Below, piece after piece: positions 1 to 60,743 of a DNA stretch of 64,000 nt. This DNA comes from Octopus vulgaris (Eukaryota): the NCBI GenBank assembly GCA_951406725.2, contig OX597833.1:56420001-56484000 (forward strand). The letters run 5' to 3'. Position numbers and translations under genes: made by a program. Position 1 is the first letter of the stretch. Every line of letters begins with the position of its first letter. The notes below the pieces were generated by a model. It was not told the DNA's origin. It did not search any database and saw only the letters and a program-made list of their open reading frames with translations.

Positions 1-1279
1 GGTTTTCTTGGGTCTACCTCTTCCACAGGTCCCCTCAACTGCCAGGGTGTGGCACTTTTTCACACACTTATCTTCATCCATTCTCACCACATGACCATAC
101 CAGCGCAATTGTCTCTCTTGCACACAACATCTGATTCCTCTTAGGTCCAACTTTTCTCTCAAGGTACTTACACTCTGTCGACTATGAACACTGACATTAC
201 ACATCCAACGGAGCATACTAGCTTCATTTCTCGCGAGCTTACGCATGTCCTCAGCAGTCACGGCCCATGTTTCACTGCCATGTAGCATGGCTGTTCGTAC
301 ACATGCATCATACAGTCTGCCTTTTACTCTGAGCGAGAGGCCTTTAGTCACCAACAGAATTAAGAGCTCCCTAAACTTTGCCCAGGCTATTCTTACTCTA
401 GCCGTTACACTTTCAGCACACCCACCCCCACTACTGACTTGGTCACCAAGATAACGGAAGCTATCAACTACTTCTAGTTTTTCCCCCTGGAAAGTGACGG
501 AAGTTGTTTTCTGCAGATTTTCAGAGGTTAATGCTCCCGAGCATCTGCCACATACAAAAACCATCTTCCTAGTTAGCCTTCCTATGACATTGCTGCACCT
601 CTTATGTGTCCATAGCTTACACTTGGTGCATCTTATAGAGTTTCTACCTACACCTTTTCTACAGATCGAGCAGGGCCATCTACCTGAAGGCGTTTGTGAT
701 TTGTCTACCTTCCTACTTATTAGGACTTTGGTTTTAGCTAGGTTGACTCTAAGGCCCTTCGATTCTAAACCATGCTTCCACACCTGAAACTTCTTCTCCA
801 GTTCTGATAATGACTAAGCAATTAGAGCAAGGTCATCAGCATAGAGGAGCTCCCAGGGGCATCCTGTCTTGAATTCCTCCGTTATTGCCTGGAGGACTAT
901 GATAAATAGGAGGGGGCTGAGGACTGAGCCTTGGTGGACCCCTACCTCTACCCGGAATTCTTCACTGTACTCATTTCCAACCCTCACCTTACTAGCAACG
1001 TCCCTGTACATGGCTTGCACAGCTCTCACTAACCATTCTTCTATTCCTAGTTTCCTCATTGACCACCATATGAGGGATCGGGGGACCCTGTCGAAGGCTT
1101 TCTCCATGTCAACAAAAGCCAGGTACAGGGCCTTATCTTTGGCTAGGTATTTCTCCTGCAGCTGCCTTACCAGGAATATAGCATCAGTGGTACTTTTCCC
1201 TGGCACGAAACCAAACTGCATCTCATCTAAACTAACTCTCTCTCTAATTAGTTGGCTTATGACCCTCTCTGTAACCTTA
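1..1279 (-). mobile_element. 5'-truncated RTE-clade LINE, reverse transcriptase region (disrupted; continues off the left edge)
   Basis: ORF 814..1428 has RT motifs QFGFVPGKSTTDAIF, FVDMEKAFD, GVHQGSVLSPLLF and LLYADDL, with an in-frame stop at 814-816. Bases 1-30 read CGRGRPKKT on the minus strand, the RTE C-terminal motif. Confidence 0.92.
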
Positions 1280-1745
1280 TATATATCATTGTTTAACGTC
1301 TGTTTTCCGGCTAGCACAGGTTGGACAGTTTGACTGGGGTCTGGGAAGCCAGGAGGCTGCACCAGGCTCCAGTCTGATCTGGCAGTGTTTCTACAGCTGG
1401 ATGCCCTTCCTAACGCCAACCACTTCATGAGTGTAGTGGGTGCTTTTTATGTGCCACCGGCACAGAAGCCAGCAAAAGTGGCGCTGGCATCGGTCACGTT
1501 CGGATGGTGCTTTTCACATGCCACCGGCACAGATATATATAAACACACACACAGATAATGTATGTATATGTATATTAGTGAAAGATGCACACATTGATAA
1601 GAAAATGAAACTCATACATTGAAGTAAGCATAACTTGTGGTATTTATTCTACCTAACGTACACTCTCTTTTGCCACTGGAAATGCACTGTGGTATAATAT
1701 GTCAGGATATATGTAGCTGGATGTGTTGTGGTATATATATATATA

Positions 1746-6459: not shown

Positions 6460-7051
6460 ACTTTGTAGAGGGTTTTACTTTCTCTCCTCTTTTTATTTTC
6501 ATCCTATTGTTTTTTTCAGAACAAGATTTAAGATTCCTATCCATGGCCTGTATTTTTAGAATGTACACACATCAGTCTCCAAGATATATCATACCCAGAG
6601 TAAATTTACTTCATGTAAACTCTACTATTTATAAATTTTCTCTAATGCTTGAGTCACTATAGATACATGCGGGATTGTTGGGGATCGCTTCTGAAATCCA
6701 CATATTCCCACGAAACTTCTTCCAAGGAAGAAGCCGACTCAACCCACCCAGGGTGAATGTTGCCACAAGTACAAGTAAGTAGTACTATAGACACAGGTTT
6801 TCACTTAGCCTTTTTTTTTAGTTTTAACAATGGCCTTTGCTCCTCTAAAATTGTTGACTACCATTTCCTGTTAATCTATTTAATGCACTCATCTTTCTCC
6901 TCTTTATATCTACTGTACACCATCTAGTCTTTTTAATGGCCTCTGTTTCTCTAAAAGTGCTGACTTTGTAACATCATGTGAATCTAAGAGATGAGGAATT
7001 ATGTACATTATTTACATTCGACGGATATTTGTCCTCATCTTGTTTGTTGTT

Positions 7052-7097
7052 AACACAACGTTTCGGCTGATATACCCTCCAGCCTTCATCAGGTGTC
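7052..7097 (-). ncRNA. Minimal type I hammerhead ribozyme motif
   Basis: Minus strand reads GACAC-CTGATGA-A-GGCTG-GAGGGTATAT-CAGCC-GAAAC-GTT-GTGTT. Stem I GACAC/GTGTT, stem II GGCTG/CAGCC, loopless palindromic stem III AACGTT and a GUU triplet. Confidence 0.75.
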
Positions 7098-7180
7098 TTG
7101 GGGGAAATTTTGAACCTGGGTTCTCATTCCTAAGGTATGTTTCGATACTATTATTATTATTATTATTGTTTGGGCCCATG

Positions 7181-7253: not shown

Positions 7254-7318
7254 TAAACAATAATAATCACATCGAAAAATACCTTAGGAATGAGAACCCA
7301 GGTTCGAAATTTCCCCAA

Positions 7319-7364
7319 GACACCTGAAGACGGCTGGAGGGTATATCTGCTGAAACATTGTGTT
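7319..7364 (+). ncRNA. Degenerate minimal hammerhead motif (second copy)
   Basis: GACAC-CTGAAGA-C-GGCTG...CTGCT-GAAAC-ATT-GTGTT. CpG-type changes damage stems II and III relative to the 7052-7097 copy. Confidence 0.55.
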
Positions 7365-8507
7365 AACAACAAACAAGATGGCCTTTCTTTTTACTTTCTT
7401 TTCTTTTTTTTTTTTTTACTTGTTTCAGTCATTTGACTGCGGCCATGCTGGAGCAGCACCAAATCGACCATGGGACTTATTCTTTGTAAGCCTCGTACTT
7501 ATTCTATCGGTCTCTTTTGCTGAACCGCTAAGTGACGGGGATGTAAACACACCTGCATCAGTTGTCAAGCAATGCTAGGGGGACAAACACAGACACACAA
7601 ACACACACACATACATATACATATATACGACAGCTTCTTTCAGTTTCCATCTACCAAATCCACTCACAAGGCATTGGTCGGCCCGGGGCTATAACAGAAG
7701 ACACTTGCCCAAGATGCCACGCAGTAGGACTGAACCCGGAACCATGTGGTTGGTAAGCAAGCTACTTACCACACAGCCACTCCTGCGCCTTGTATAATTT
7801 CAGTAAACAAACTATTTGCAAGAATCAGTGAAAAGTCTGTTTACTGAAATTACAAACGAGGTCACTGGCTGTTGTCAGATTCATTAGTCCAAGTATGACT
7901 GGCTGAAAACACACAATGTCAAAACATCAGTGTTCCAGAGTCCCTTTACTATATAAAAATAACATTATCTAATATGCTGGTAGTTGAATATATGAAAATA
8001 GGGAGAATTTCTGATAGGGACACAAAATGGTTTCTGATTAAGGCACGAGGTCAGCAATTTTGAGAGGATGATGAGTTGTTAACACTATCAACCAGTGAAT
8101 TTGACTGGCATTTTATTTTATTCATTCTGAAAGGATGAAACACAAAGTTGGCCTTTGCAGAATTTGATGTGAGAATGTAAAAAGCCAGAACAAATACCTA
8201 TTTCTTTACTACCCACACGGGGCTAAACACAGAGGGGTCAAACAAGGACAGACAAACGGATTAAGTCGATTACATCGACCCCAGTGCATAACTGGTACTT
8301 ATTTAATCGACCCCGAAAGGACGAAAGGCAAAGTCGACCTCGACGGAATTTGAACTCAGAACGTAATAGCAGACAAAATACGGCTACGCATTTCGCCCGG
8401 CGTGCTAACGTTTCTGCCAGCTCGCCGCCTGAACAAATACCACAATGCTCTACCTTTTCTGCTAGTCCACCGCCTTTTCTAGGGGTTACATAATAAGACT
8501 GACTTAC

Positions 8508-21001: not shown

Positions 21002-21878
21002 CTAGAAGTTTACGAAAAAAAGATGCATTAAAAAAAAAAAAACCATTATTGATATTACAGTTTTTTGAGGAATTATGTACATTATTTACATTTGACGGAT
21101 ATTTGTCCTCATCTTGTTTGCTGTTAACACAATGTTTCAGCTGATATGCCTATTTCTTCACTGCCCACAAGGGGCTAAACACAGAGAGGACAAACAAGGA
21201 CAGACAAACAGATTAAGTCGATTATATCGACCCCAGTGCATAACTGGTACTTATTTAATCGTCCTCAAAAGGATGAAAGGCAAAGTCGACCTCGGCGGAA
21301 TTTGAACTCAGAACGTAGCGGCAGACAAAATACCGCTAAGCATTTTGCCCGGCGTGCTAACGTTTCTGCCAATTCAGCTGATATACCCTCCAGCCTTCAT
21401 CAGGTGTATTGGGGAAATTTCAAACCTGCATTTCGCCCAGTGTGCTAATGATTCTGCCAGCTTGCTGCCCTTGCAAAAGGACTACTTTACAACAAGATCA
21501 TTGTATTGTCTTCATCTCAGTACATTTTTAGTCCATATTCCTTCTTGTCTCTTTGTTAAACAGCCTCCTGCATTAATACTTTTCTCTCTGCTTTTATTGA
21601 CTGTCTTTTTTTCTTTATTGTAGGAGTGGCTGTGTGGTAAGTAGCTTGCTTACCAACCACATGGTTCCGGGTTCTGTCCCATCATCATCGTTTAACATCC
21701 ATTTTCCATGCTAGCATGTGTTGGATGGTTCAACCGGGTCTACAGGCCCATTTGAAATCGTAGAACCATGGGCAATTTCAAGTGGGTTGGTATTAAAATG
21801 GTTAATTATGACTGAATGTAATGATCATTAATTAATTTGTGAAATGTCTTTAATTGTAGAAAATTGTTCTCATCTCAC

Positions 21879-23560: not shown

Positions 23561-26115
23561 CCTGGACCTAAAAGAGAAATACAAAATATATAAATAAATG
23601 AATGAAACACACACACATATGCACACAAAGTTTAACATATTTTTACAAGCTTCATCTTTCTACTTGTTTCAGTCATTTGACTGCGGCCATGCTGGAGCAC
23701 CGCCTTTAATCGAGCAACTCGACCCCGGGGTCTCATAAAGCAGGTCCTCGTAAAATGAGGTACTACTGTTTATACAAGAATCATGAGTTTCAGGCTTTAC
23801 TTGAGGCTATTTTATTTACTATCACTATTATCATTTCACTAAAGACTCAGTCTTTGGATTGCTCATACCACATTCCTGACAACACCATATATTAATTTCC
23901 TCAAGTTCTTGTAAGTTGAAGAGATTTTGTCAGAATATGAAGACATTACACATGCAAGGAGCAGTGTCAAGCATCTAAGTTGACCATTTCCTAAGAGTAT
24001 TAGCAACAGAAATTAAGTAACTGCAATTAGAAATCAAAATAACCTCAATCTTGACTTAACAGGAATTTACAGCCTATTACATGACACTTTTAAATTCTAT
24101 TTTTATTTTCAGAAAATAGAGGAAATATCAGGTCAAGATGTTTTAACACTGCAGTACTCAAAGTAAAGCTTTATATAGATCTCAAGCCACTTAGGAAATA
24201 GCGAGGTATGGCAGGCGTGGCTGTATGGGTAAGATGTTTGATTCCCAACCATGTGGTCTCAGGTTCAGTTGCACTGCATGGTAGTACCTTGGGCAAGTGT
24301 CTGCTTTAGCCCCATGTAATGTAAGCCTTGGGTGTGGATTTGATAGACAAAAACTGAAAGAAGCCCATAGAGTGTATGTGTGTGTGTGTACCCCAGTTTT
24401 GACATCATGTGATGGCTGTAAATGAGCATCACCATCACACAGGCAATGTTATATTTCCAGTCTTCTGTGTCTGGTCATGAGGAAATATAACAATGCTTAG
24501 AAGGTTGACAAGAGAAAGGGACTCGGACCATAGAAAATCTGCATCAATAAATTCTGTCTAACCCATGCAAGCGTGGACAAATGGACATTAAATAATAATG
24601 ATGCAGCAGCAATTATTGAGTTGTTTTATAAAAATTTCAGAATAAACCTAAGTTCTTTTTCTGTTTAAAATAATTAGTAATTATCTCCATTAGTAATTAT
24701 CCTTTGCGAGTCAAACATATGTACTGATAAAACCATAACCATAAAAATTATCTCTAACGAAAGGTAGGTTCTTAAAGACCTTTAATTACATGGCTATACA
24801 CACCTGTAATATAATAGTTATAAAATCAATAAAATAAATGAGAGTCAATATTGGTTTCAAATTTTGGCACAAGGCCAGCAATTTGGGAGGAGATAGTTGA
24901 TTATATCAATCCCAGTGCTCAACTGGTACTTATTTTATGGACCCCAGAAAGATAAAATGTAAAGTTGACTTCAGTAGAATTTGAACTCAGGATGTAAAGA
25001 TGAAATGTCGCTAAGCATTTTGTCCAGTGTGTTAACGATTCTGCCAGCTTACTGCCTTAATGAGAGAGAATATTAACATGGATATTACAACTGCTACATC
25101 AGAAAGGTCAATCTGTATTCAAGATAAAGTATTCAATAAGGTGATTTGCTGTGCTTGAGAACACAGGTCAAACTAGGTGAAATTGTAGTCGTGGCCAGAG
25201 CTAGTGACTCATTACTCTTTGGAGTGGTTGTCATTAGGAGGGGCATCCAGGCGTAGAAACCAAGCCAAAATAAACTGGAGCCTGGCACAGCTCTCTGGCA
25301 TACCAGCTCCAGTCACATCGTCTTACCCATGGCAACATGGAAAATGGACGCATGACGATGATAACTTGAGTGTATGAGAAAGTTCCAATTCCTAGATGAA
25401 GGAGCTTCACTTCCTTTGTACTGATATCAACACTGAGTAGGGCAAGTGTGTGTTTGAGTGTGTTTGTGTGGTTTGTACATTAGTAAAATGATGATCGCAA
25501 AAAGTGTACACTTTTTATATAGGCGTAGGAGTGGCTGTGTGGTAAGTAGCTTGCTTACGAACTGCATGGTTCCAGGTTCAGTCCTTCTGCATGGTACCTT
25601 GGGCAAGTGTCTTCTGCTATAGCCTTGGACCGACCAAAGCCTTGTGAGTGGATTTGGTAGACAGAAACTGAAAGAAGCCCGTAGTATATATGTTTATATA
25701 TGTATGTGTGTGTATATGTCTGTCCCCACCAACATCGCTTGACAACCGATGCTGGCGTGTTTAAGTCCCCTTAACTTAGCGGTTCGACAAAAGAGACCAA
25801 TAGAATAAGTACTACACTTGCAAAGAATAAGTCCTGGGGTCGATTTACTTGACTAAAGGCGGTGCTCCAGCATGGCCACAGTCAAATGACTGAAACGAGT
25901 AAAAAAACTTGTTTCCTTTTCTTTTCTTTTTTTTTCTGTTTTCAAAGATTTCCCAGTAGAAACATGGAGATCTTTCAGGTGAAATGATAGTACACCCATT
26001 GCAGTAATTATTTTAGAAAAATATATTAATTATTCTGCTGAACTGCACCGAGCTCTAAACATAGTTCATTGTCTGCCTTATTCTTAATAAGCAATTACTA
26101 TGATATATACATATA

Positions 26116-26520
26116 GTGAAAGTTTACGGAAAAAAACAAAAGACGAAGACAGGTGGTGTAAAAAACAAACAAATGTATTAGTATAGCACTCAGGAATAGA
26201 AAAAGTCTTATGTTTCGAGCCTATGCTCTTCTACAGAAAGGGACACAGAAAAAACAAGTAGAGAAAAAAAATGTGTGTAGTGGCTAAAGGTCTATCATGG
26301 CGTCTGACTCGGACAAAATAATATATATATATATGTTTATACCGCGTGTGTACCGTTGGCGATTTTTTTTCCTCTGTCTTCCCTTCTCCTATGTTTCCGA
26401 CGAAGAGCTCCGCTCGAAACATTAAGCCCTCCTTCTTTCCTGAGCATCCAATAATACTATAATTGTTCCATGTCCTCGCGTTGTGTTTTTTTGTGCTTTC
26501 TTGTTTGGATTAACTATATA
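26116..26520. mobile_element. Two divergent Penelope-type terminal fragments, each with a variant hammerhead-like motif
   Basis: Minus 26205-26240: CTTT-CTGTAGA-A-GAGC-ATAG-GCTC-GAAAC-ATA-AGAC. Plus 26393-26427: GTTT-CCGACGA-A-GAGC-TCC-GCTC-GAAAC-ATT-AAGC. The left fragment recurs at 60618-60750. Confidence 0.6.
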
Positions 26521-34043: not shown

Positions 34044-35765
<1,722 letters not shown>

Positions 35766-36437: not shown

Positions 36438-38018
36438 TATATATACACATACATAAAAGGATAAAAGGAGAAAGAGAGGAAGATAGGGAGTAGGATAATT
36501 GAGAAAGAGAAAGAAAAAACAAAGAGGGAGGAAAAGATAGACAGACAGAGAGAGGTTTCTTTTCAATGATATTGCATCAGTGTGGTCAACCCATTGAAAT
36601 TTAATTACAATTCAAGATGTTTTTTTGATTCAGTCATTGCTTTTGAAAACATCTCTCCCTCTTTCCGTTTTTCTTCATTTGACTGTGGCCATGCTGGAGC
36701 ACCACTTTTAGTGAGCAAATTGACCCCAGGACTGACCCCAGGACTTATTCTTTGTAAGCCTAGTACTTATTCTATCGGTCTCTTTTGCCGAACCGCTAAG
36801 TTACGGGGATGTAAACACTCCAGCATTTGTTGTCAAGTGATGTTGGGGGGACAAACACAGACACACAAACATATACACACACATATATATATATATACAT
36901 ATATATACGATGGGCTTTTTTCAGTTTCTGTCTACCAAATCCATTCACAAGGCATTGGTCGGCCCAAGGCTATAGTAGAAGACACTTGCCCAAGGTGCCA
37001 CGCAGTGGGACTGAACCTGGAACCATTTGGTTCGTAAGCATGCTACTTACCACACAGCTACTCCTATGCTATAAATGAAAAAATGGATATATCTACAAAC
37101 ATATTTACAAATATCTATTTACAAATATATTGATATGAAAGAAGAAAAAAGGAAAGAGGAAGATGTTTTGGAAAGCAATGACTGACTGAAGAATAATTGT
37201 AATTAAACATCAATGGGTTGACCACATCCATACAATATCATTGAAAAGAAACCTCTCTCTATCTTTCCCCTTCATTTTTTCTTCTTCCTCTTTTTTCTTA
37301 TCTTTCCCATCCTTCTTCCTAAAATTGACATCTTGAAGGGTTATTTAGCCCCTGCCTCCTATTCGTCTCCTCTCCTCCTATCCTTATTCCCAAACATGTC
37401 AATAAGTATATAATGAGGAAATGTGTATATTTACAAATATGTTGATAGGTATATAATTAGAGAGGAAAAAGGTGAGAGAAAAAAGATGCTTTCAAAAATA
37501 ACGACTGAATCAAGAACAACATTTTGAATTGTTATTAAATTTCAATGGGTTGACCACATTCTGAGTTCAAATTTCGCCAAGGTCGACTTTGCCTTTCATC
37601 CTTTCCGGGGTCGATAAATTAAGTACCAGTTACACACTGGAGTCGATGTAATCGACTTAATCCGTTTGTCTATCCTTGTTTGTCCCCTCTATGTTTAGCC
37701 CCTTATGGGTAGTAAAGAAACAGATACAATATCATTGAAAAGAAACCTCTCTCTGTCTGTCCACCTTTTCCCCCTTCTTTTCTTTCTCTTTCTTGATTGT
37801 CCTGCTCCCTATCTTTCCCCTCTTTCTCCCTTTCTCCTTTTTCCAAAATGCAAAATTTTCTTCTCTTCTAAGCAGAACAAAAAAAATCTGCTCTTCAATT
37901 CATACAAAAGGCTCTGTTTTATTATCTTGGTTTTAATTTCTCTAGAAGAGCTGGGTTAAACAAATGAAAGCACTAAGAATTATCTGAAATTCTGAATTTT
38001 AGAAGCAATAATAAATCT

Positions 38019-38440
38019 CTGGGGCTTCAAACTACAGTAGCATCCACCCTTAGGGGTTAGCCATATTTAAATGGCAAATATACGTCACAATGTGTTGCAG
38101 CTACTGTTTATAACTCGCTCTAAGACTTATTATTGCTCGTATACACTTTTTCAATATCAGTGTCTTTACGATTCTGGAAAAAGGATATGTATTTGTTAAG
38201 GGAACCTACTTTTCATCGACAACTGTGATTGTCACACGCCGATGACGGGTCAATATTCAGAAACTCGAGTCCGTGTGTATCATAAGTTGAAGACAGGAAG
38301 GATGGCTTCCCTTTGCAAATACTGATAGGGCACAGAAAGTGTGTCTATAGCCAGCTGGAGGCGGTGTCCTCCTGGGGCTACAAACTACAGTAGCATCCAC
38401 CTTTAGGGGTTAGCTATATTTAAATGGCAAATATACGTCA
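38019..38440 (+). mobile_element. Retrozyme-like unit: 353-bp period, 69-bp terminal redundancy, central hammerhead motif
   Basis: 38019-38087 is repeated at 38372-38440 with 3 mismatches. HHR motif at 38233-38277. Candidate TSD TGAATTTTAGAA at 37993-38004 and 38444-38455. Confidence 0.72.
38233..38277 (+). ncRNA. Type I hammerhead ribozyme motif (core variant CCGAUGA)
   Basis: CACACG-CCGATGA-CGGGTCAATATTCA-GAAAC-TCGA-GTC-CGTGTG. Perfect 6-bp stem I, palindromic stem III ACTCGAGT and a GUC triplet. Stem II is weak (GGG/TTC). Confidence 0.68.
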
Positions 38441-46761: not shown

Positions 46762-49700
46762 TGTGTGTGTGTATATGTTTGTGCGTCTGTGTTTGTCCCC
46801 ACAACATCGCTTGACAACCAATGCTGGTGTGTTTATGTCCCTGTAACTTAGCGGTTCGGCAAAAAGAGCCTGACAGAATAAGTACCAGGCTTATAAAGAA
46901 TAAGTCCTGGGGTCGATTTGCTCGACTAAAGGTGGTGCTCCAGCATGGCCACAGTCAAATGACTGAAACAAGTAAAAGAGTAAAAGAGTAAACCTTTAAT
47001 CAAGAGAGTTCTGCTATGATCATTTTGCCTTTTATTTAGGCACAATGTATCTAAGAAGGACCAAACTAGCTAATGTGTTTTTCTTTTGGTTGTTTTTGAG
47101 ATTGTACAGTGTAATATGATGTAATGAGAGAGATTTTGCTGTTATTTCTAGAAGGACAAGCGATACTTGAAGGAAGCAGGTATCTCATTTCAAAGGTGGC
47201 AAGCTGGCAGAAACGTTAGCACACCGGGCGAAATGCGTAGCCATATTTCATCTGCCGTTACATTCTGACTTCAACTTCCACTGAGGTTGACTTTGCTCTT
47301 CGTCCTTTCAGGGTCGATAAATTAAGTACCAGTTACGCACTGGGGTCGATATAATCTGTCCTTGTTTGTCTCCTCTGTGTCTCCTCTGTGTTTAGCCCCT
47401 TGTGGGTAGTAAAGAAATAGGTTCCTCACTTCAAAACTTGGTAAATATTTTACATACACAAGAGAATCGAAGCATGTAGAATAAAGTGTCCTGGTCAGAG
47501 ACAGCAATGATGTAATGACTACAACAGTGGTTTGAACTCACGATGAAGAGTTTAAAGCTGAGTATGTTTTCTATTTGGCCATTTTGAACTAACAGCGTTC
47601 AATGCACTGTTACACCAGTAATCAAATGTCAAAAAGATATTTCTTTTCCTTTTGCTTCTCTGTAACAAATATGTTTAATATTTTAATGAAGAAACTTATC
47701 TGAGGTAATATGACCCTTGGATTTGTAATCTACGTGAAGTGGTTACAGTTTGTGAGTTCAGACTGGTTCTGTAAGCCAATATATCAAAATGAGATGGGTG
47801 GTGCCAAGGAAGGGGAATTAACATGAGCCAATGTAGAAACTGAAGGATTATAGCAAGCTAGTCAAAAATTGCTCGATACTTATACTCTTTGCTTAGAGAT
47901 TTCATTAAAGTACATCCAACCCTGTATCTTGATACTGTTTTTCACTTGGGGTAATAATACTTCGAACCATTCCACTCCATTGTACCAATTTCAGACTTCT
48001 GGAGTATGTATGTAACTAAGTAACATAGATTCGTACTTGTAATGTTCGTTATTTCTTTCACCTCTCCAAGGAAAATGTGCTTGTGTCATCATGGGATGGG
48101 ATCAGGTTGTTATTGTATGTTTTGCAGACGGGGATCACAAAAGTTATATCTGTGTTTTGGAAGGGGATGGGATTAGGAAAAAAAATTATGTCTGTGTTTT
48201 GTGGGGATAGGGGTCAGAAATGTTATGTTTGCATTTTGGATAACAGGGACAAGGGTTCTAGTTGATCCTATCAACAACCTGCTCATGAAATTAATGTATT
48301 TCTTTACTACCCACAAGGGACTAAACACAGAGAAGACAAACAAGGACAGACAAAGGGATTAAGTCGATTACATCGACCCCAGTGCATAACTGGTACTTAA
48401 TTTATCGACCCAGAAAGAATGAAAGGCAAAGTCGACCTCGGCAGAATTTGAACTCAGAACGTAATGGCAGACAAAATATGGCTATGCATTTTGCCCCGCG
48501 TGCTAACATTTCTGCCAGCTCATGTGCAAGTGGCTGAGTACTCCACAGGCATGCATACCATTAATGTAGTTTTCAGAGAGGTTCAGCATGACCCAGACTG
48601 TGACAAAGCTGGCTCTTTGAAATACAGGTACTACTCATTTTTGCCAGCTGAGTGTACTGGGGCAGTGTGAAATAAAGTGTCTTGCTCAAGGACAATGTGC
48701 TGTCTTGCCTCAAATTCATGACCTTACGATTGTGAGCTGCATATCCTAACCACTAAGCCATATGTGTTTTGGTTATAAGATGAGAAAAATTATATTTGTG
48801 TTTGAGGGAAGAATTGTGTAAGTAGAATATTTTTTTTAAATTGCCATTTAGTCAGGAAAGAAAAGGCAGTGTCCATGGTTCTTTATTTTCCAGGGCCTTC
48901 AAGAATGGTGGCAGAAAAGTGAGGAAGTTATCCTCAAACTGGGAATCTTGTCCATATTCTTAGAACAGAGTAAATTCTGTAACTGTCTTACAAATAGTTT
49001 CTTTCGTTTCCGCTCTGTAACACAGCTGGACCTTTGAATTTTGGGTTCACTCCACCCAAAGAGCTTCCACACAGCTTCCATTAACCCAGTTTCACTCACA
49101 AGGTTTAATTTTACTTGTAGATTATGGTAAAAAAATACTTAAGCCAGATTATTACTGGTACTTATTTAATAGACATATTGAATCCTCAAACTCTTTCTCC
49201 ATTTCATCATGGACAGCCACTTGGTCAGAGAGAGAGAGACAAGCCACAAGAAGTGTTGCACAAAAGATTATCACACCAGTTCACTTTTGTCATTGTTCAG
49301 GAATCTTTGAGGTTGTATAGGTTTCAGCGTGATCATCATCATCATCATCTTTGTTTAACGTCCGCTTTCCATGCTAGCATAGGTTGGACAATTTGACTGA
49401 GGACTGGCGAACCAGATGGCTGCACCAGGCTCCAATCTTGATCTGGCAGAGTTTCTACAGCTGGATGCCCTTCCTAATGCCAACCACTCTGAGAGTGTAG
49501 TGGGTTCTTTTACGTGCCACCGGCACAAGGGCCAGTCAGGCGGTACTGGCAATGGTCACGGAAAATCGTGTTTTTTTTTAACGTGTCACCTGCACACTGG
49601 CACAAGTGCCAGTAAGGCGACGCTGGTAATGATCACGCTCGAATGGTGCTTTTTACGTGCCACTGGCATGAACACCAGTTAGCTGTTCTGGCAATGATCA

Positions 49701-50128: not shown

Positions 50129-50628
50129 CCTTATTTAATAGACATATTGAATCCTCAAACTCTTTCTCCATTTCATCATGGACAGCCACTTGGTCAGAGA
50201 GAGAGAGACAAGCCACAAGAAGTGTTGCACAAAAGATTAGCTATGGAGCTAGTTGCTGTAGTTAAGTGGTGTGAACCAAATCCTGTTTTGTTCCAGCATA
50301 GAGTAGCTTCACCACGTGGTGGCAGCTTGGGATAGCTGTGAGCTTTGAGAGAGATCGATACATGGGAAGTTTTGCTGCTGGTAGTTCTCTGTGTCACTAC
50401 ACTCTTCTCAGTTTTAACCCATGTGGTGATATGATTTGAACTACATCTCCCAAGGATTTCTAATACTAGCCAGAAGGTTTTAGGGGCCTTGTGCTTATTT
50501 GTTAACCCTTATGGCTACAAGAGACCTTTATGGAGGTATTTGTTGGGAGAAAGCTATATATGGTCATAATTTATTGAAACAGCTGTGTGTAGTTGCATAA
50601 TATAGCTAATTACTTTATTAATTATTAA

Positions 50629-55032: not shown

Positions 55033-56732
55033 TAAAAATTTATCTTATTATTTTTATTCGTTGTTACTACGTTTATTCATACATTGTTACGAAAATTTAA
55101 CCTTTTAGGCTACTTTCAAGCCTTCGCCATAACTTGATTTATCTTTCCTATCTCTCTCTCTACAAAATTTAACCTTAGGCTGCCTCAAGCCGTAATCCCA
55201 TCTTTTCCCATCTTTCCGCCATTGGCGGTCTTTTTCCTCCTCTTCTTCTTCTTATGCTAAAACTTGAAAATCGCCATTACCATTACGATTCTGCAATTTA
55301 AATTCCCAGTTCAACTTACTTTCTTCTTCAATTTCAACTCCCGCTCGATGCCCGCAGCAAGTTCTTAAAAATTTATCTTATTATTTTTATTCGTTGTTAC
55401 TACGTTTATTCATACATTGTTACGGAAATTTAACCTTTTAGGCTACTTTCAAGCCTTCGCCATAACTTGATTTATCTTTCCTATCTCTCTCTCTACAAAA
55501 TTTAACCTTAGGCTACCTCAAGCCGTAATCCCATCTCTTCCCATCTTTCCGCCATTGGCGGTGCGCCCGCCCCCCCACCACCAATACCGATGAACACCAA
55601 TACCGATGAACACTGTTCTCACCCCCACCACCAATACCGATGAACACTGTTCTCACCCCCACCACCAATACCGGTGAACACTGTTCTCACCGCCACCACC
55701 ACCAATACCGGTGAACACTGTTCTCACCCCCCACCACCAATACCAGTATACCCTGTTCTCACCATCTACACCGGATACGCCTTACTCATCTACACCGAGT
55801 ACGCCCTACTCCCTCCTCCTCCCCCCACTACCCCTTCTCCTCATATGCTTTCACTGTGAAAAGACAAGCTGCTAGCGCCATAGCTCATCAACTGCCCACC
55901 GATCTTACGCTTCCTCCTGACACTGCCTCATTCCGACCATCCCCTTTAGTACCCTCCCGCCTCGTAATATCCTACGTTTTTATTTCTTAGGAACCTACAC
56001 CAACCCTTCCTGCCATCGTTCCTCCTTACCCCAACCTTCCCCACTGGTTGCTCCCCTATATTACCCGCCTCAACTGGACCCCCCCCCTCCCCAACTCAAC
56101 TCTAGAATATCTGTATTTCTTTCCTCTACCTAATTACGTTACTCAGTGACGATAACGAATGTCTTTATTTCTCAGGAACCTACACCAACCCTTCCTGCCA
56201 TCGTTCCTCCTTACCCCAACCTTCCCCACTGGTTGCTCCCCTATATTACCCGCCTCAACTGGACCCTCCCCTCCCCAACTCAACTCTAGAATATCTGTAT
56301 TTCTTTCCTCTACCTAATTACGTTACTCAGTGACGATAAATGCTGTGACTACAAAGACCCGGGCTGCTTTCTGCAGCAATTCCACATACCCCCTACCCAT
56401 TCTAAGTACCCCGGATCCCCAAAGTACCCTGGATCCCCAAAGTACCCCGATCCCCAAAGTACCCCGGACCTCGTTGCCCCCGTGCCGCTGACACGTTAAA
56501 ATGCTCGAACCGATCGTGACGATGCCGGACCCTCCGGCCCCTGTGCAGGTGGCACGTAAAAAGCACCCAATCCACTCACGGAGTGGTTGGCGTTAGGAAG
56601 GGCATCCAGCCGTAGAAACTCTGCCAGATTCAGACTGGAGCCTGGTGCGGCCCCTGGCTTCCCAGACCCGGTCAAACCGTCCAACCCGTGCTAGCGCGGA
56701 AAGCGGACGTTAAACGATGATGATGATGATGA

Positions 56733-56831: not shown

Positions 56832-57718
56832 CAGGATGCGGTGAATAAACTGTTATCTAACTTACGCAAAACTGAAAATAATGCTGACATCTCATTTTAA
56901 CAGATATATTTACCAAAATTAAATTAAAATATCTTGAAATACTAAAGAGTAAATTTATTCAATAAATTCGCCATTGGCTTCAACCACGGCCTCCAGACGA
57001 CTTTGGAATCTCATGCAGCTCTTCTGGATGGTCTTTTTGTTTAAGTTGGTAAATGCTGCCATAATCCTTGCCGTCAGTTCATCTTTGGTGTTACAAGGAA
57101 TTTTGTTGGTCTCTCGCTCAACTGCACCCCACACATAATAATCAAGGGAGTTACAGTCTGGGGAGTTAGGTGGCCAGATGTTAGGGGTGATGTGGTCGCA
57201 GAAATTGTATGACAGCCATGACTGGGTTCTCCTGCTTCTGTGGCATGGTGCAGAGTCCTGTTGCCAGACATTGGGTCTTCCAGCAGCCACCCTCTTGATC
57301 CAGGGCAGCACTATCTCCTCCAGGCACTTGAATTAGGCCTCTGTGTTAAGTCTGAGGCCGTGTAGGAAGATGAACGGAGGCATAACGTCACCATCACTAA
57401 TGATCACTGCAAACACCATAAAGTTGACTGGATGTTTGATTTTTATCACTCTTGGTACATGTTTTGGGGTTACAGCAAACACTCTGATTGAGACCCAGAC
57501 ACTCAGAAATAATTGTATTGGAGCTTCCAGGGTGAATGCCAAGCAGTACAGCATGTCGCTTCCAAATTTCTGGTAGAGTAAATTGCATCAGGGTGCTATT
57601 TTTCTGACAGACAGTGCCCAACTGACCCTACTATACTGTGAAGTCAACAAAATCAAAAACAACGTGCATACATGAAATTAAAAATATAAAATGGTGACAA
57701 TTTACCCATTGCAACCTG
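56832..57718 (-). mobile_element. Internally deleted Tc1/mariner-superfamily element, DD37D (maT-like)
   Basis: WQQDSAPCH...WPPNSPDCNSLDYYVWG has 37 residues between the last two catalytic Asp. Degenerate TIRs CAGGATGCGGTGAATAAACTGTTATC and GTGACAATTTACCCATTGCAACCTG. Confidence 0.85.
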
Positions 57719-57981
57719 ATGATTTCTTTTGAATGAAACAGTTCTAGTCCTGTAGAAGCTCCTTCTATAAAATAAATTAATTTACTCTGCTATGTATTGA
57801 GTACCTTATTTACTGTGGTTAACCCCGACTCAACCCAGGACCTACATATATATATATATATAAATAAGTATAAGACCATTATTTAAAATACCAATCTTAT
57901 CAGGTGGCTAGCATGGGAATAAAAACCTCAAATGTAATAATTAATTATTAAAATTATAATTAAGGGTCTCAGCAATATCTA

Positions 57982-58532
57982 TTTTTTTTGCGCTAGGCCA
58001 CTGGTAATAAAAAATTTCTATAATTCTTATTACCCTAATATTACTTATTAGGTTTAAATGATTTTTGATAAATTTATTCGAGGTTTTTACCAGCATCCTC
58101 TCTGTTGCTGGAAATAAGCTGTGTCTGATAGGTGGATTTGAAAAGTTAGAATGTACAAATAATAAGTTTACATGTGGAATCAATCTCGTTGTGTGTATAT
58201 TTGAAATCTAAAGGCTACCTACTGATGAAGACTGGCCTCAGTAAATCTTTTATTTTACTGAAATAAGTCAGAAAGCATGGTCAAGGAACTAAATTAGATG
58301 GTAAAAGTTTTTAATTTTCTTTCCTTCGAGAATTTATCCCTAATTAGTGGTTTGAGTTGTTTACTGCTCTTTCTAGCGCAAGGCTTTCCTATGATGGAAG
58401 CCTCTTAATGTGTTTTAATGTATACGATATTTCATATGAATAATATATAGTCTATTGGCTAATTTTTTTTTGCGCCAGGCCACTGGTAATAAAAAATTTC
58501 TATAATTCTTATTACCCTAATATTACTTATTA
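57982..58532 (+). mobile_element. Second terminally redundant hammerhead-containing unit (482-bp period)
   Basis: 57982-58050 is repeated at 58464-58532 with 1 mismatch. HHR-like motif at 58218-58286. Confidence 0.65.
58218..58286 (+). ncRNA. Degenerate type I hammerhead motif with extended stem II
   Basis: CCTA-CTGATGA-A-GACT-GGCC-TCAGTAAA-TCTTTTA-TTTTACTGA-AATA-AGTC-A-GAAA-GCATG-GTC-AAGG. Mismatches at the base of stems I and III. Confidence 0.55.
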
Positions 58533-58816
58533 TGTTTATATACATATGTATATACATACATACACACACACACTCCCACACACATAAACAAATATATATA
58601 TACACACATACACACAAAAAAAAAGAGACAAAGAGAGAAGGGTTAAGGAGAAGGCAAGACAAAGAATAACGTTTAAGTAACAGTTTGTAACACAATCTTT
58701 AGTTTTGGCTGTCGATTTATATTGTTCATTTTTTTCCCTTCTCATTCAAATATTCATTTCTAACATTGACACAAGGCCACACACATCTTGTATATATAAA
58801 TATATATGCACATATG

Positions 58817-60596: not shown

Positions 60597-60706
60597 ATAT
60601 AAATATATATATATATAGGGAGAGTTTACGAAAAAAACAAAAGACGAAGACAGGTGGTGTACAAAACAAACAGATGTATTAGTATAACGCTCAGGAATAG
60701 AAAAAG

Positions 60707-60743
60707 TATTTTACGTTTCGAGCCTATGCTCTTCCACAGAAAG
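60707..60743 (-). ncRNA. Variant minimal hammerhead-like motif
   Basis: Minus strand reads CTTT-CTGTGGA-A-GAGC-ATAG-GCTC-GAAAC-GTA-AAAT. Same family as 26205-26240. Confidence 0.45.

Follow-up and report, generated by a model that had tools for sequence, protein, structure and literature searches.

A terminally redundant hammerhead unit in Octopus vulgaris, probably an inactive non-autonomous copy mobilised by a Penelope-like element

Penelope-like elements (PLEs) often insert as partial tandems, in which a 5′-truncated copy, the pLTR, precedes a full copy; according to the accessible text of PMC8557442, they can also have an optional tail of 30–40 bp, show a preference for microsatellites and include non-autonomous versions. 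For the PLE of Anolis, the available part of PMC11167929 describes nicking of AT-rich DNA and reverse transcription that starts at internal RNA sites downstream of the hammerhead. Hammerhead mutants of this element insert normally in vitro, indicating that cleavage is dispensable (PMC11167929, same part). According to the excerpt available from PMC4209133, three traits mark PLE hammerheads, which are believed to act as dimers: helix III is palindromic, an additional base sits between positions 9 and 10.1, and there is a G10.1-C11.1 pair.

Animal non-LTR retrozymes consist of tandem units and are expressed as circles (PMC7229834, in excerpt). Their units measure 51–972 bp, are often found as monomers and are related to the pLTRs of PLEs; eight of nine tested retrozyme dimers did not cleave (bioRxiv 10.64898/2026.07.22.740005, available sections). 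Penelope-like families are abundant in O. vulgaris (PMC13282606, PMC8967140), with 31 recently active families reported (PMC13282606). Insertion at (TA)n is described for Octopus Naiads, among which one has a half core (supplement of PMC8557442), and 235 matches to Hammerhead_1 have been reported for the giant squid (PMC6962438), in each case as given in the accessible portion of the source.

We analysed a window of 64,000 nucleotides of O. vulgaris, which contains at 58 kb a terminally redundant, hammerhead-bearing unit (Table 1). The terminal repeats lie on the same strand at an offset of 482 and agree at 68 of 69 bases, which bears out the ~69-bp repeat and the 482-bp period that an earlier note had described from the letters. 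The BLAST match of the repeat is longer (78 bp, 96%), and the repeat opens with a T run that makes up its first 8 bases; its length is therefore uncertain by ~9 bp. As a whole, the insertion amounts to 1.14 units with a single hammerhead, which is situated outside the repeated part. We read the 5′ repeat copy as a pLTR-like, 5′-truncated remnant of an upstream unit; the 3′ copy would be the 3′ end of the insertion, and the microsatellite beside it would be the target site. An imperfect inverted repeat is present within each copy (58003–58034 and 58485–58516). The terminal repeat of a second element, at 38 kb, likewise folds into short hairpins. These could be structures at which reverse transcription initiates, but the z-scores of single repeats are weak.

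Table 1. Features of the 58-kb element and of two minimal-hammerhead families in the window.
Feature	Position	Strand	Remarks
5′ copy of 69-bp terminal repeat	57982..58050	+	68/69 identical to 58464-58532
Unique non-coding body of 482-bp unit	58051..58463	+	32% GC, no long ORF
Hammerhead stem I, 5′ strand	58216..58221	+	4/6 positions pair, innermost A·A
First core box CUGANGA, intact	58222..58228	+	
Domain II	58229..58270	+	A·A base, 4-bp stem, 4×4 internal loop, 8-bp capping hairpin
GAAA box (58271-58274), stem III, GUC	58271..58282	+	one G·G mismatch in stem III
Hammerhead stem I, 3′ strand	58283..58288	+	
3′ copy of terminal repeat	58464..58532	+	match may reach 58541
(TA)/(CA) microsatellite	58533..58616	.	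adjoins 3′ repeat copy directly
First minimal-hammerhead family, copies	6992-7161 (-), 7256-7380 (+), 21066-21428 (-)		
Second minimal-hammerhead family	26111-26240, 26397 (+), 60613-60743 (-)		motifs 26397(+), 60739(-)

We found no long ORF in any of the six frames of the unit, and neither six-frame translation nor PLE motif patterns revealed remnants of RT or GIY-YIG at the locus. An autonomous PLE was rejected, as there is no RT + GIY-YIG ORF. Inspection by eye showed neither a PBS nor a PPT. Alignments that sought a target-site duplication (TSD) remained within the range of shuffled sequences, and those that searched the left flank (57600–57981) for earlier units, in tandem or inverted, were no better than shuffles. 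ARAGORN returned 0 genes in the search for a tRNA-derived head, and a bacterial promoter scan of the locus, which is not relevant to this host, stayed at chance level. What the locus presents is a partial tandem without a detectable TSD at a microsatellite, the arrangement by which a non-autonomous PLE derivative is recognised. Because the 3′ end lies at a microsatellite and no TSD is detectable, as in PLEs (accessible text of PMC8557442), we favour a PLE-type insertion.

The earlier note had proposed an independent retrozyme-like family. A unit with a hammerhead and redundant ends, different in sequence from the 38-kb element, is indeed present, but the family remains putative, with no second copy of the 482-bp unit in the 64-kb window. 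Relatives were likewise absent from GTDB, plasmids and phages; these negatives are uninformative about a family, since a dispersed repeat abundant in the window is missing from GTDB too. Two short motifs of the element are absent from the accessible part of the Naiad/Chlamys/Hydra supplement of PMC8557442, within which we found no sequence link to any autonomous PLE, and a 3′-end fragment of Naiad_Obim appeared unrelated to the element by eye. A relic of a DDE transposase (56955–57332, minus strand), whose match is below the curated cut-off, lies ~650 bp to the left of the element. Far from the locus, an RT fragment (814–1446, minus strand) is 93% identical to an O. vulgaris protein, the highest identity among the matches listed.

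The plus strand of the unit carries, in the order of a type I hammerhead, stem I, CUGANGA, domain II, GAAA, a near-palindrome, GUC and the second strand of stem I. The mid-unit CUGAUGA...GAAA...GUC motif noticed earlier was recovered with its CUGANGA and GAAA boxes intact and a GUC that ends at 58282, after which cleavage is predicted from the sequence. Stem II had been described as GACT/AGTC extended by an 8-bp hairpin, and we find both parts: four pairs connect 58230–58233 with 58266–58269, a 4×4 internal loop follows (58234–58237 : 58262–58265, with a 5′ purine and a 3′ A), and the capping hairpin (58238–58261) is closed by 8 bp (58238–58245 with 58254–58261) at pair probabilities of 0.93–1.0. 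The stem III region (58274–58281) is, as also noticed, one change away from an 8-nt palindrome. Among the traits of PLE hammerheads, the extra base after A9 and the G10.1-C11.1 pair are present, and the palindrome is one mismatch short.

The motif departs from the ideal fold at 3–4 of ~40 constrained sites. The core is separated from the G-C pair that opens stem II by an A·A opposition (58229/58270); this G-C pair is present at the stem base, an extra A precedes G12, and a competing register is favoured. The hammerhead register of stem II reaches a pair probability of ~0.28, and the MFE fold adopts the other register, in which the G of GAAA (G12) is paired. In helix III, the 15.2-16.2 pair is replaced by a G·G mismatch, so that there is no perfect palindrome; this mismatch and an A·A at 1.1/2.1 break the pairs beside the catalytic core. 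This copy of the hammerhead is predicted to be inactive. A distal extension of stem I is not significant, as 200 of 2000 shuffles were equally stable, and was given no weight.

The extension of stem II by a hairpin is of a kind already known. The replacement of loop 2 by an internal loop, with helix II continuing beyond it, has a precedent in the CChMVd (−) hammerhead (PMC2632901), and loop 2 of the octopus motif fits the RNnA motif given there and ends as the Schistosoma loop 2 does. In the accessible portions of the respective sources, CChMVd (+) naturally carries one more A after A9 (PMC1636495), and an axolotl hammerhead is naturally mismatched at the foot of helix II (PMC7229834). Within an incompletely covered literature on PLE hammerhead variants, we found no description of a stem II base with an additional base on both strands.

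Together, these data make it probable, at roughly 0.62, that the element is an inactive, non-autonomous copy, either a non-LTR retrozyme or a pLTR derivative, which was mobilised by a PLE. A tandem source locus elsewhere would be transcribed as a multimer, or its RNA turned into a circle, through type I hammerheads; from what is known of PLE and retrozyme biology, these may pair as dimers via a palindromic stem III. The RT/GIY-YIG protein of a PLE would nick AT-rich or microsatellite DNA, for which the Anolis PLE offers an in vitro precedent, and reverse transcription would begin at an internal RNA site ~250 nt 3′ of the cleavage site. If one full 482-nt unit and 69 nt of the upstream unit were copied before a stop, a 1.14-mer with direct-repeat ends would result. 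Such a 1.14-mer is seen at the locus; its cause, the enzyme, the template and the order of events we infer. Having a single, imperfectly folding hammerhead outside the repeat, the copy would release neither a monomer nor a circle. The hammerhead was probably imperfect in the template already, and insertion need not have been blocked by this. Given one hammerhead outside the repeat, no 482-nt circle would arise from the 58-kb locus, and any such circle would come from other loci.

The 38-kb element (38019–38440) has a 69-bp repeat as well, 66 of 69 bases being identical, with a period of 353. Its motif possesses a perfect 6-bp stem I and an 8-nt palindrome, and the first core box deviates at one position; the circular fold of the element gives a z of −3.7. 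The two elements had been called unrelated in sequence, and this agrees with our alignments, in which repeat against repeat and motif against motif score like shuffles. Common to both are a 4-nt palindromic loop 3 and an N..A opposition outside the G-C pair at the stem II base. The distance from the cut site to the end is 250 nt in the 58-kb element versus 169 nt in the 38-kb element, whose second repeat does not adjoin a microsatellite. That the redundancy is equal, at 69 bp, in both elements is uncertain, with n = 2 and ends that are fuzzy by ~9 bp. A shared integration mechanism, as suggested in the earlier note, is plausible; by analogy, the published mechanism of this kind would be Penelope-type partial-tandem insertion. 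The left flank of the 38-kb element (38004–38018) is an inverted copy, at 14 of 15 positions, of an internal segment (38123–38137). Between two (TA)n tracts we also observed a 112-bp island (35125–35236), the reverse complement of which aligns to part of the 38-kb element with a score of 48 that 0 of 300 shuffles reach; from this alignment, the island is possibly a distant relative of that element.

The repeats and the hammerhead of the 58-kb element differ in apparent age. Divergence amounts to 1 of 69 positions in the repeat versus 3–4 of ~40 in the hammerhead (one-sided Fisher p 0.036–0.009), and ageing after one insertion therefore does not account for the two values together; in the 38-kb element this gap is absent (p 0.31–0.64). 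The gap could stem from an imperfect template, from homogenisation of the repeats, from natural departures of the hammerhead or from a later local duplication. In the last case, two events would have met at the locus: an old, decayed hammerhead-bearing PLE relic would have been joined by a much younger local duplication of 69 bp, the product of break repair or of template switching at the adjoining microsatellite, and the 482-bp period would be accidental. We regard this as unlikely but worth serious consideration. It accommodates repeats that look younger than the damage to the hammerhead, a 3′ repeat that adjoins a microsatellite, and the existence elsewhere in the window of a 110-bp duplication beside (TA)n that contains no descriptor-passing motif; on the other side, the 38-kb element has independently the same layout and length, its second repeat adjoins no microsatellite and its ages agree, and a degenerate template or gene conversion also accounts for the age gap.

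Local direct-repeat pairs of at least 40 bp, with at least 88% identity and a period of 150–1200, number 10 in the window; four were excluded as copies of dispersed repeats and six unique pairs were kept. Two of these six hold the only two motifs of the 8-nt-palindrome class in the window (38239 and 58222), and the remaining four contain no motif that passes our hammerhead descriptor. Unique local duplications cover 5.2% of the window, and the location of both motifs inside them has a p of ~0.003, which is a post hoc value. The 110-bp duplication (49161–49270 / 50130–50239) is 100% identical, its second copy follows (TA)n, and it is either a recent repair event or an assembly artefact. Partial tandems with periods of 333 and 185, without a hammerhead, occupy 55033–55562 and 55976–56339; the stretch around them is rich in C and strongly skewed, and several minisatellites lie within it.

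For the reading of the element as a PLE-mobilised copy, some of these observations are unfavourable. Four of the six unique local duplications lack the motif, the 110-bp one beside (TA)n among them. The redundancy of 69 bp exceeds the published tail of 30–40 bp, and the repeat is devoid of a hammerhead, unlike most pLTRs. The element also has no second copy, consensus or covariation to its credit.

A more far-reaching reading of the two elements, which seems to us quite unlikely, is that Octopus has several unrelated PLE-mobilised families with a fixed redundancy of ~70 bp that excludes the ribozyme, and with a stem II variant, invisible to Rfam, that has an unpaired base on each side. The fixed redundancy would in that case resemble the retroviral R region, and its length might by analogy follow from two constant points, the start of the RNA and an internal start of RT. 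Very unlikely, in our judgement, is a live variant, namely a family with a fixed end redundancy of ~70 bp whose hammerhead naturally leaves one base unpaired on either strand at the foot of stem II and is active as a dimer or with the help of a protein, and whose tandem loci give rise to a circular RNA of 482 nt. Two unrelated elements do share the 69-bp length, the palindromic loop 3 of 4 nt and the N..A opposition, and the low divergence of the repeats suggests youth. A natural mismatch at the stem II base in the axolotl and a protein-assisted PLE hammerhead, as described in the available parts of PMC7229834 and PMC11167929, respectively, point the same way. The G·G at 15.2/16.2 and the A·A at 1.1/2.1 nevertheless disrupt pairs beside the catalytic core, the competing fold pairs G12, and the comparison comprises n = 2 elements with repeat ends uncertain by ~9 bp.

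The tolerances of the relaxed descriptor were set after the 58222 motif had been seen, and the p-values are therefore optimistic. This descriptor matched 4 of 20,000 dinucleotide shuffles of the unit, and the 8-nt-palindrome class matched 0 of 20,000. As a null for the whole window we used 600 block-shuffled windows, which yielded 429 matches with at most one core mismatch (six in the real window), 18 with an intact core (two in the real window), 40 of the 8-nt-palindrome class (two in the real window) and a single match that combined this class with an intact core (one in the real window). The repeat and the motif are real and well beyond chance.

At the gathering score, Rfam returned 0 matches in the whole window. 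At E ≤ 10, there were 11 matches in 57600–58700 and two in 58190–58310, with no hammerhead among them. The 38-kb motif, as a control, gave 0 and 1 matches, again with no hammerhead; the silence of Rfam on the 58222 motif is of low weight because this well-formed motif was also missed. Compared with shuffles, the fold of the whole unit is stable (circular z −2.8, 0/100). Its linear z of −2.84 is reached by 7 of 42 background tiles, of which one is the 38-kb element and several are microsatellite-rich, and the fold was rejected as evidence for an RNA circle. Both hammerhead core boxes also occur, with a 3-bp stem II and without stem I, at 57716–57760, 506 bp upstream of the main motif; this look-alike failed the descriptor as a second hammerhead and is probably due to chance. 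The least likely explanation, that core boxes and an AT-rich hairpin fell together by chance inside an ordinary local duplication or a long target-site duplication, can appeal to a descriptor tuned after the fact, to four departures from the ideal, to the silence of Rfam and to this partial look-alike nearby, but it has to contend with an expectation of only 0.002 matches of the same class per shuffled window, with the failure of Rfam on the 38-kb motif too, and with the co-occurrence of motif and terminal redundancy on two occasions.

Minimal hammerheads of the PLE type occur elsewhere in the window. One family has motifs at 7092 (−), 7324 (+) and 21403 (−); two of its copies form an inverted pair, and its copies end 44 bp apart (7036 versus 6992). 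The inverted pair and the optional 44-bp extension resemble the inverted copies and the tail of PLEs. The 21-kb copy of this family is broken by another repeat. The second family adjoins (TA)n tracts and has an inverted arrangement at 26 kb.

If the element was indeed mobilised by a PLE, it adds an octopus example to a class known across animals. Its value lies in the pair of elements, as small insertions of 1.1 units preserve where reverse transcription by a PLE began and where it stopped; what follows RT initiation in PLEs is still described as unvalidated in the available part of PMC11167929. Should the redundancy length prove constant across copies and families, it would constrain the mechanism of PLE insertion. 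The stem II base geometry common to both elements could account for curated models missing these ribozymes. If the reading with a fixed redundancy is true, it would provide a countable genomic readout of the RT start and stop of PLEs together with a new tolerated core geometry. We found no description of octopus retrozymes or of a fixed ~70-bp redundancy in the accessible literature, of which subscription papers formed a small part.

Among known systems, plant LTR retrozymes (PMC4918200, as far as accessible) are similar in being non-autonomous, with terminal direct repeats and a hammerhead. Their hammerhead is of type III and lies inside each ~350-bp LTR, and they have a PBS, a PPT and a 4-bp TSD, none of which is seen here; a plant-type LTR retrozyme was rejected on the type I order, the location of the motif outside the repeats and the absence of a TSD signal. 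The CChMVd (−) hammerhead (PMC2632901) also has an internal loop in place of loop 2, with a 5′ purine and a 3′ A. It is, however, a viroid ribozyme of proven activity whose helix III is complete, whereas the octopus motif is genomic, of type I and imperfect.

The element agrees with metazoan non-LTR retrozymes, as portrayed in the available parts of PMC7229834 and bioRxiv 10.64898/2026.07.22.740005, in being non-coding and low in GC, in having in each unit a single type I hammerhead whose palindromic helix III is weak, in showing neither a PBS nor a PPT, in a unit length within 51–972 bp and in a monomeric state that is common among them. Its 482-bp unit is longer than the circles of ~170–400 nt of invertebrate retrozymes, and active non-LTR retrozymes have two tandem units, each with a hammerhead, instead of 1.14 units with one. 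With a single hammerhead where an active retrozyme has two, the copy is best filed as a dead monomer derivative. In contrast to PLEs (accessible text of PMC8557442, PMC11167929 and PMC4209133), the element has no RT or GIY-YIG ORF, its hammerhead lies outside the repeat, no inverted 5′ copy was found, its 69-bp redundancy is longer than a tail of 30–40 bp, and an extra A precedes G12. With the partial tandems of PLEs and their pLTRs, as described in the same texts, it shares the partial-tandem structure, a 3′ end at a microsatellite and the lack of a detectable TSD, and with PLE hammerheads the extra base after A9 and the G10.1-C11.1 pair.
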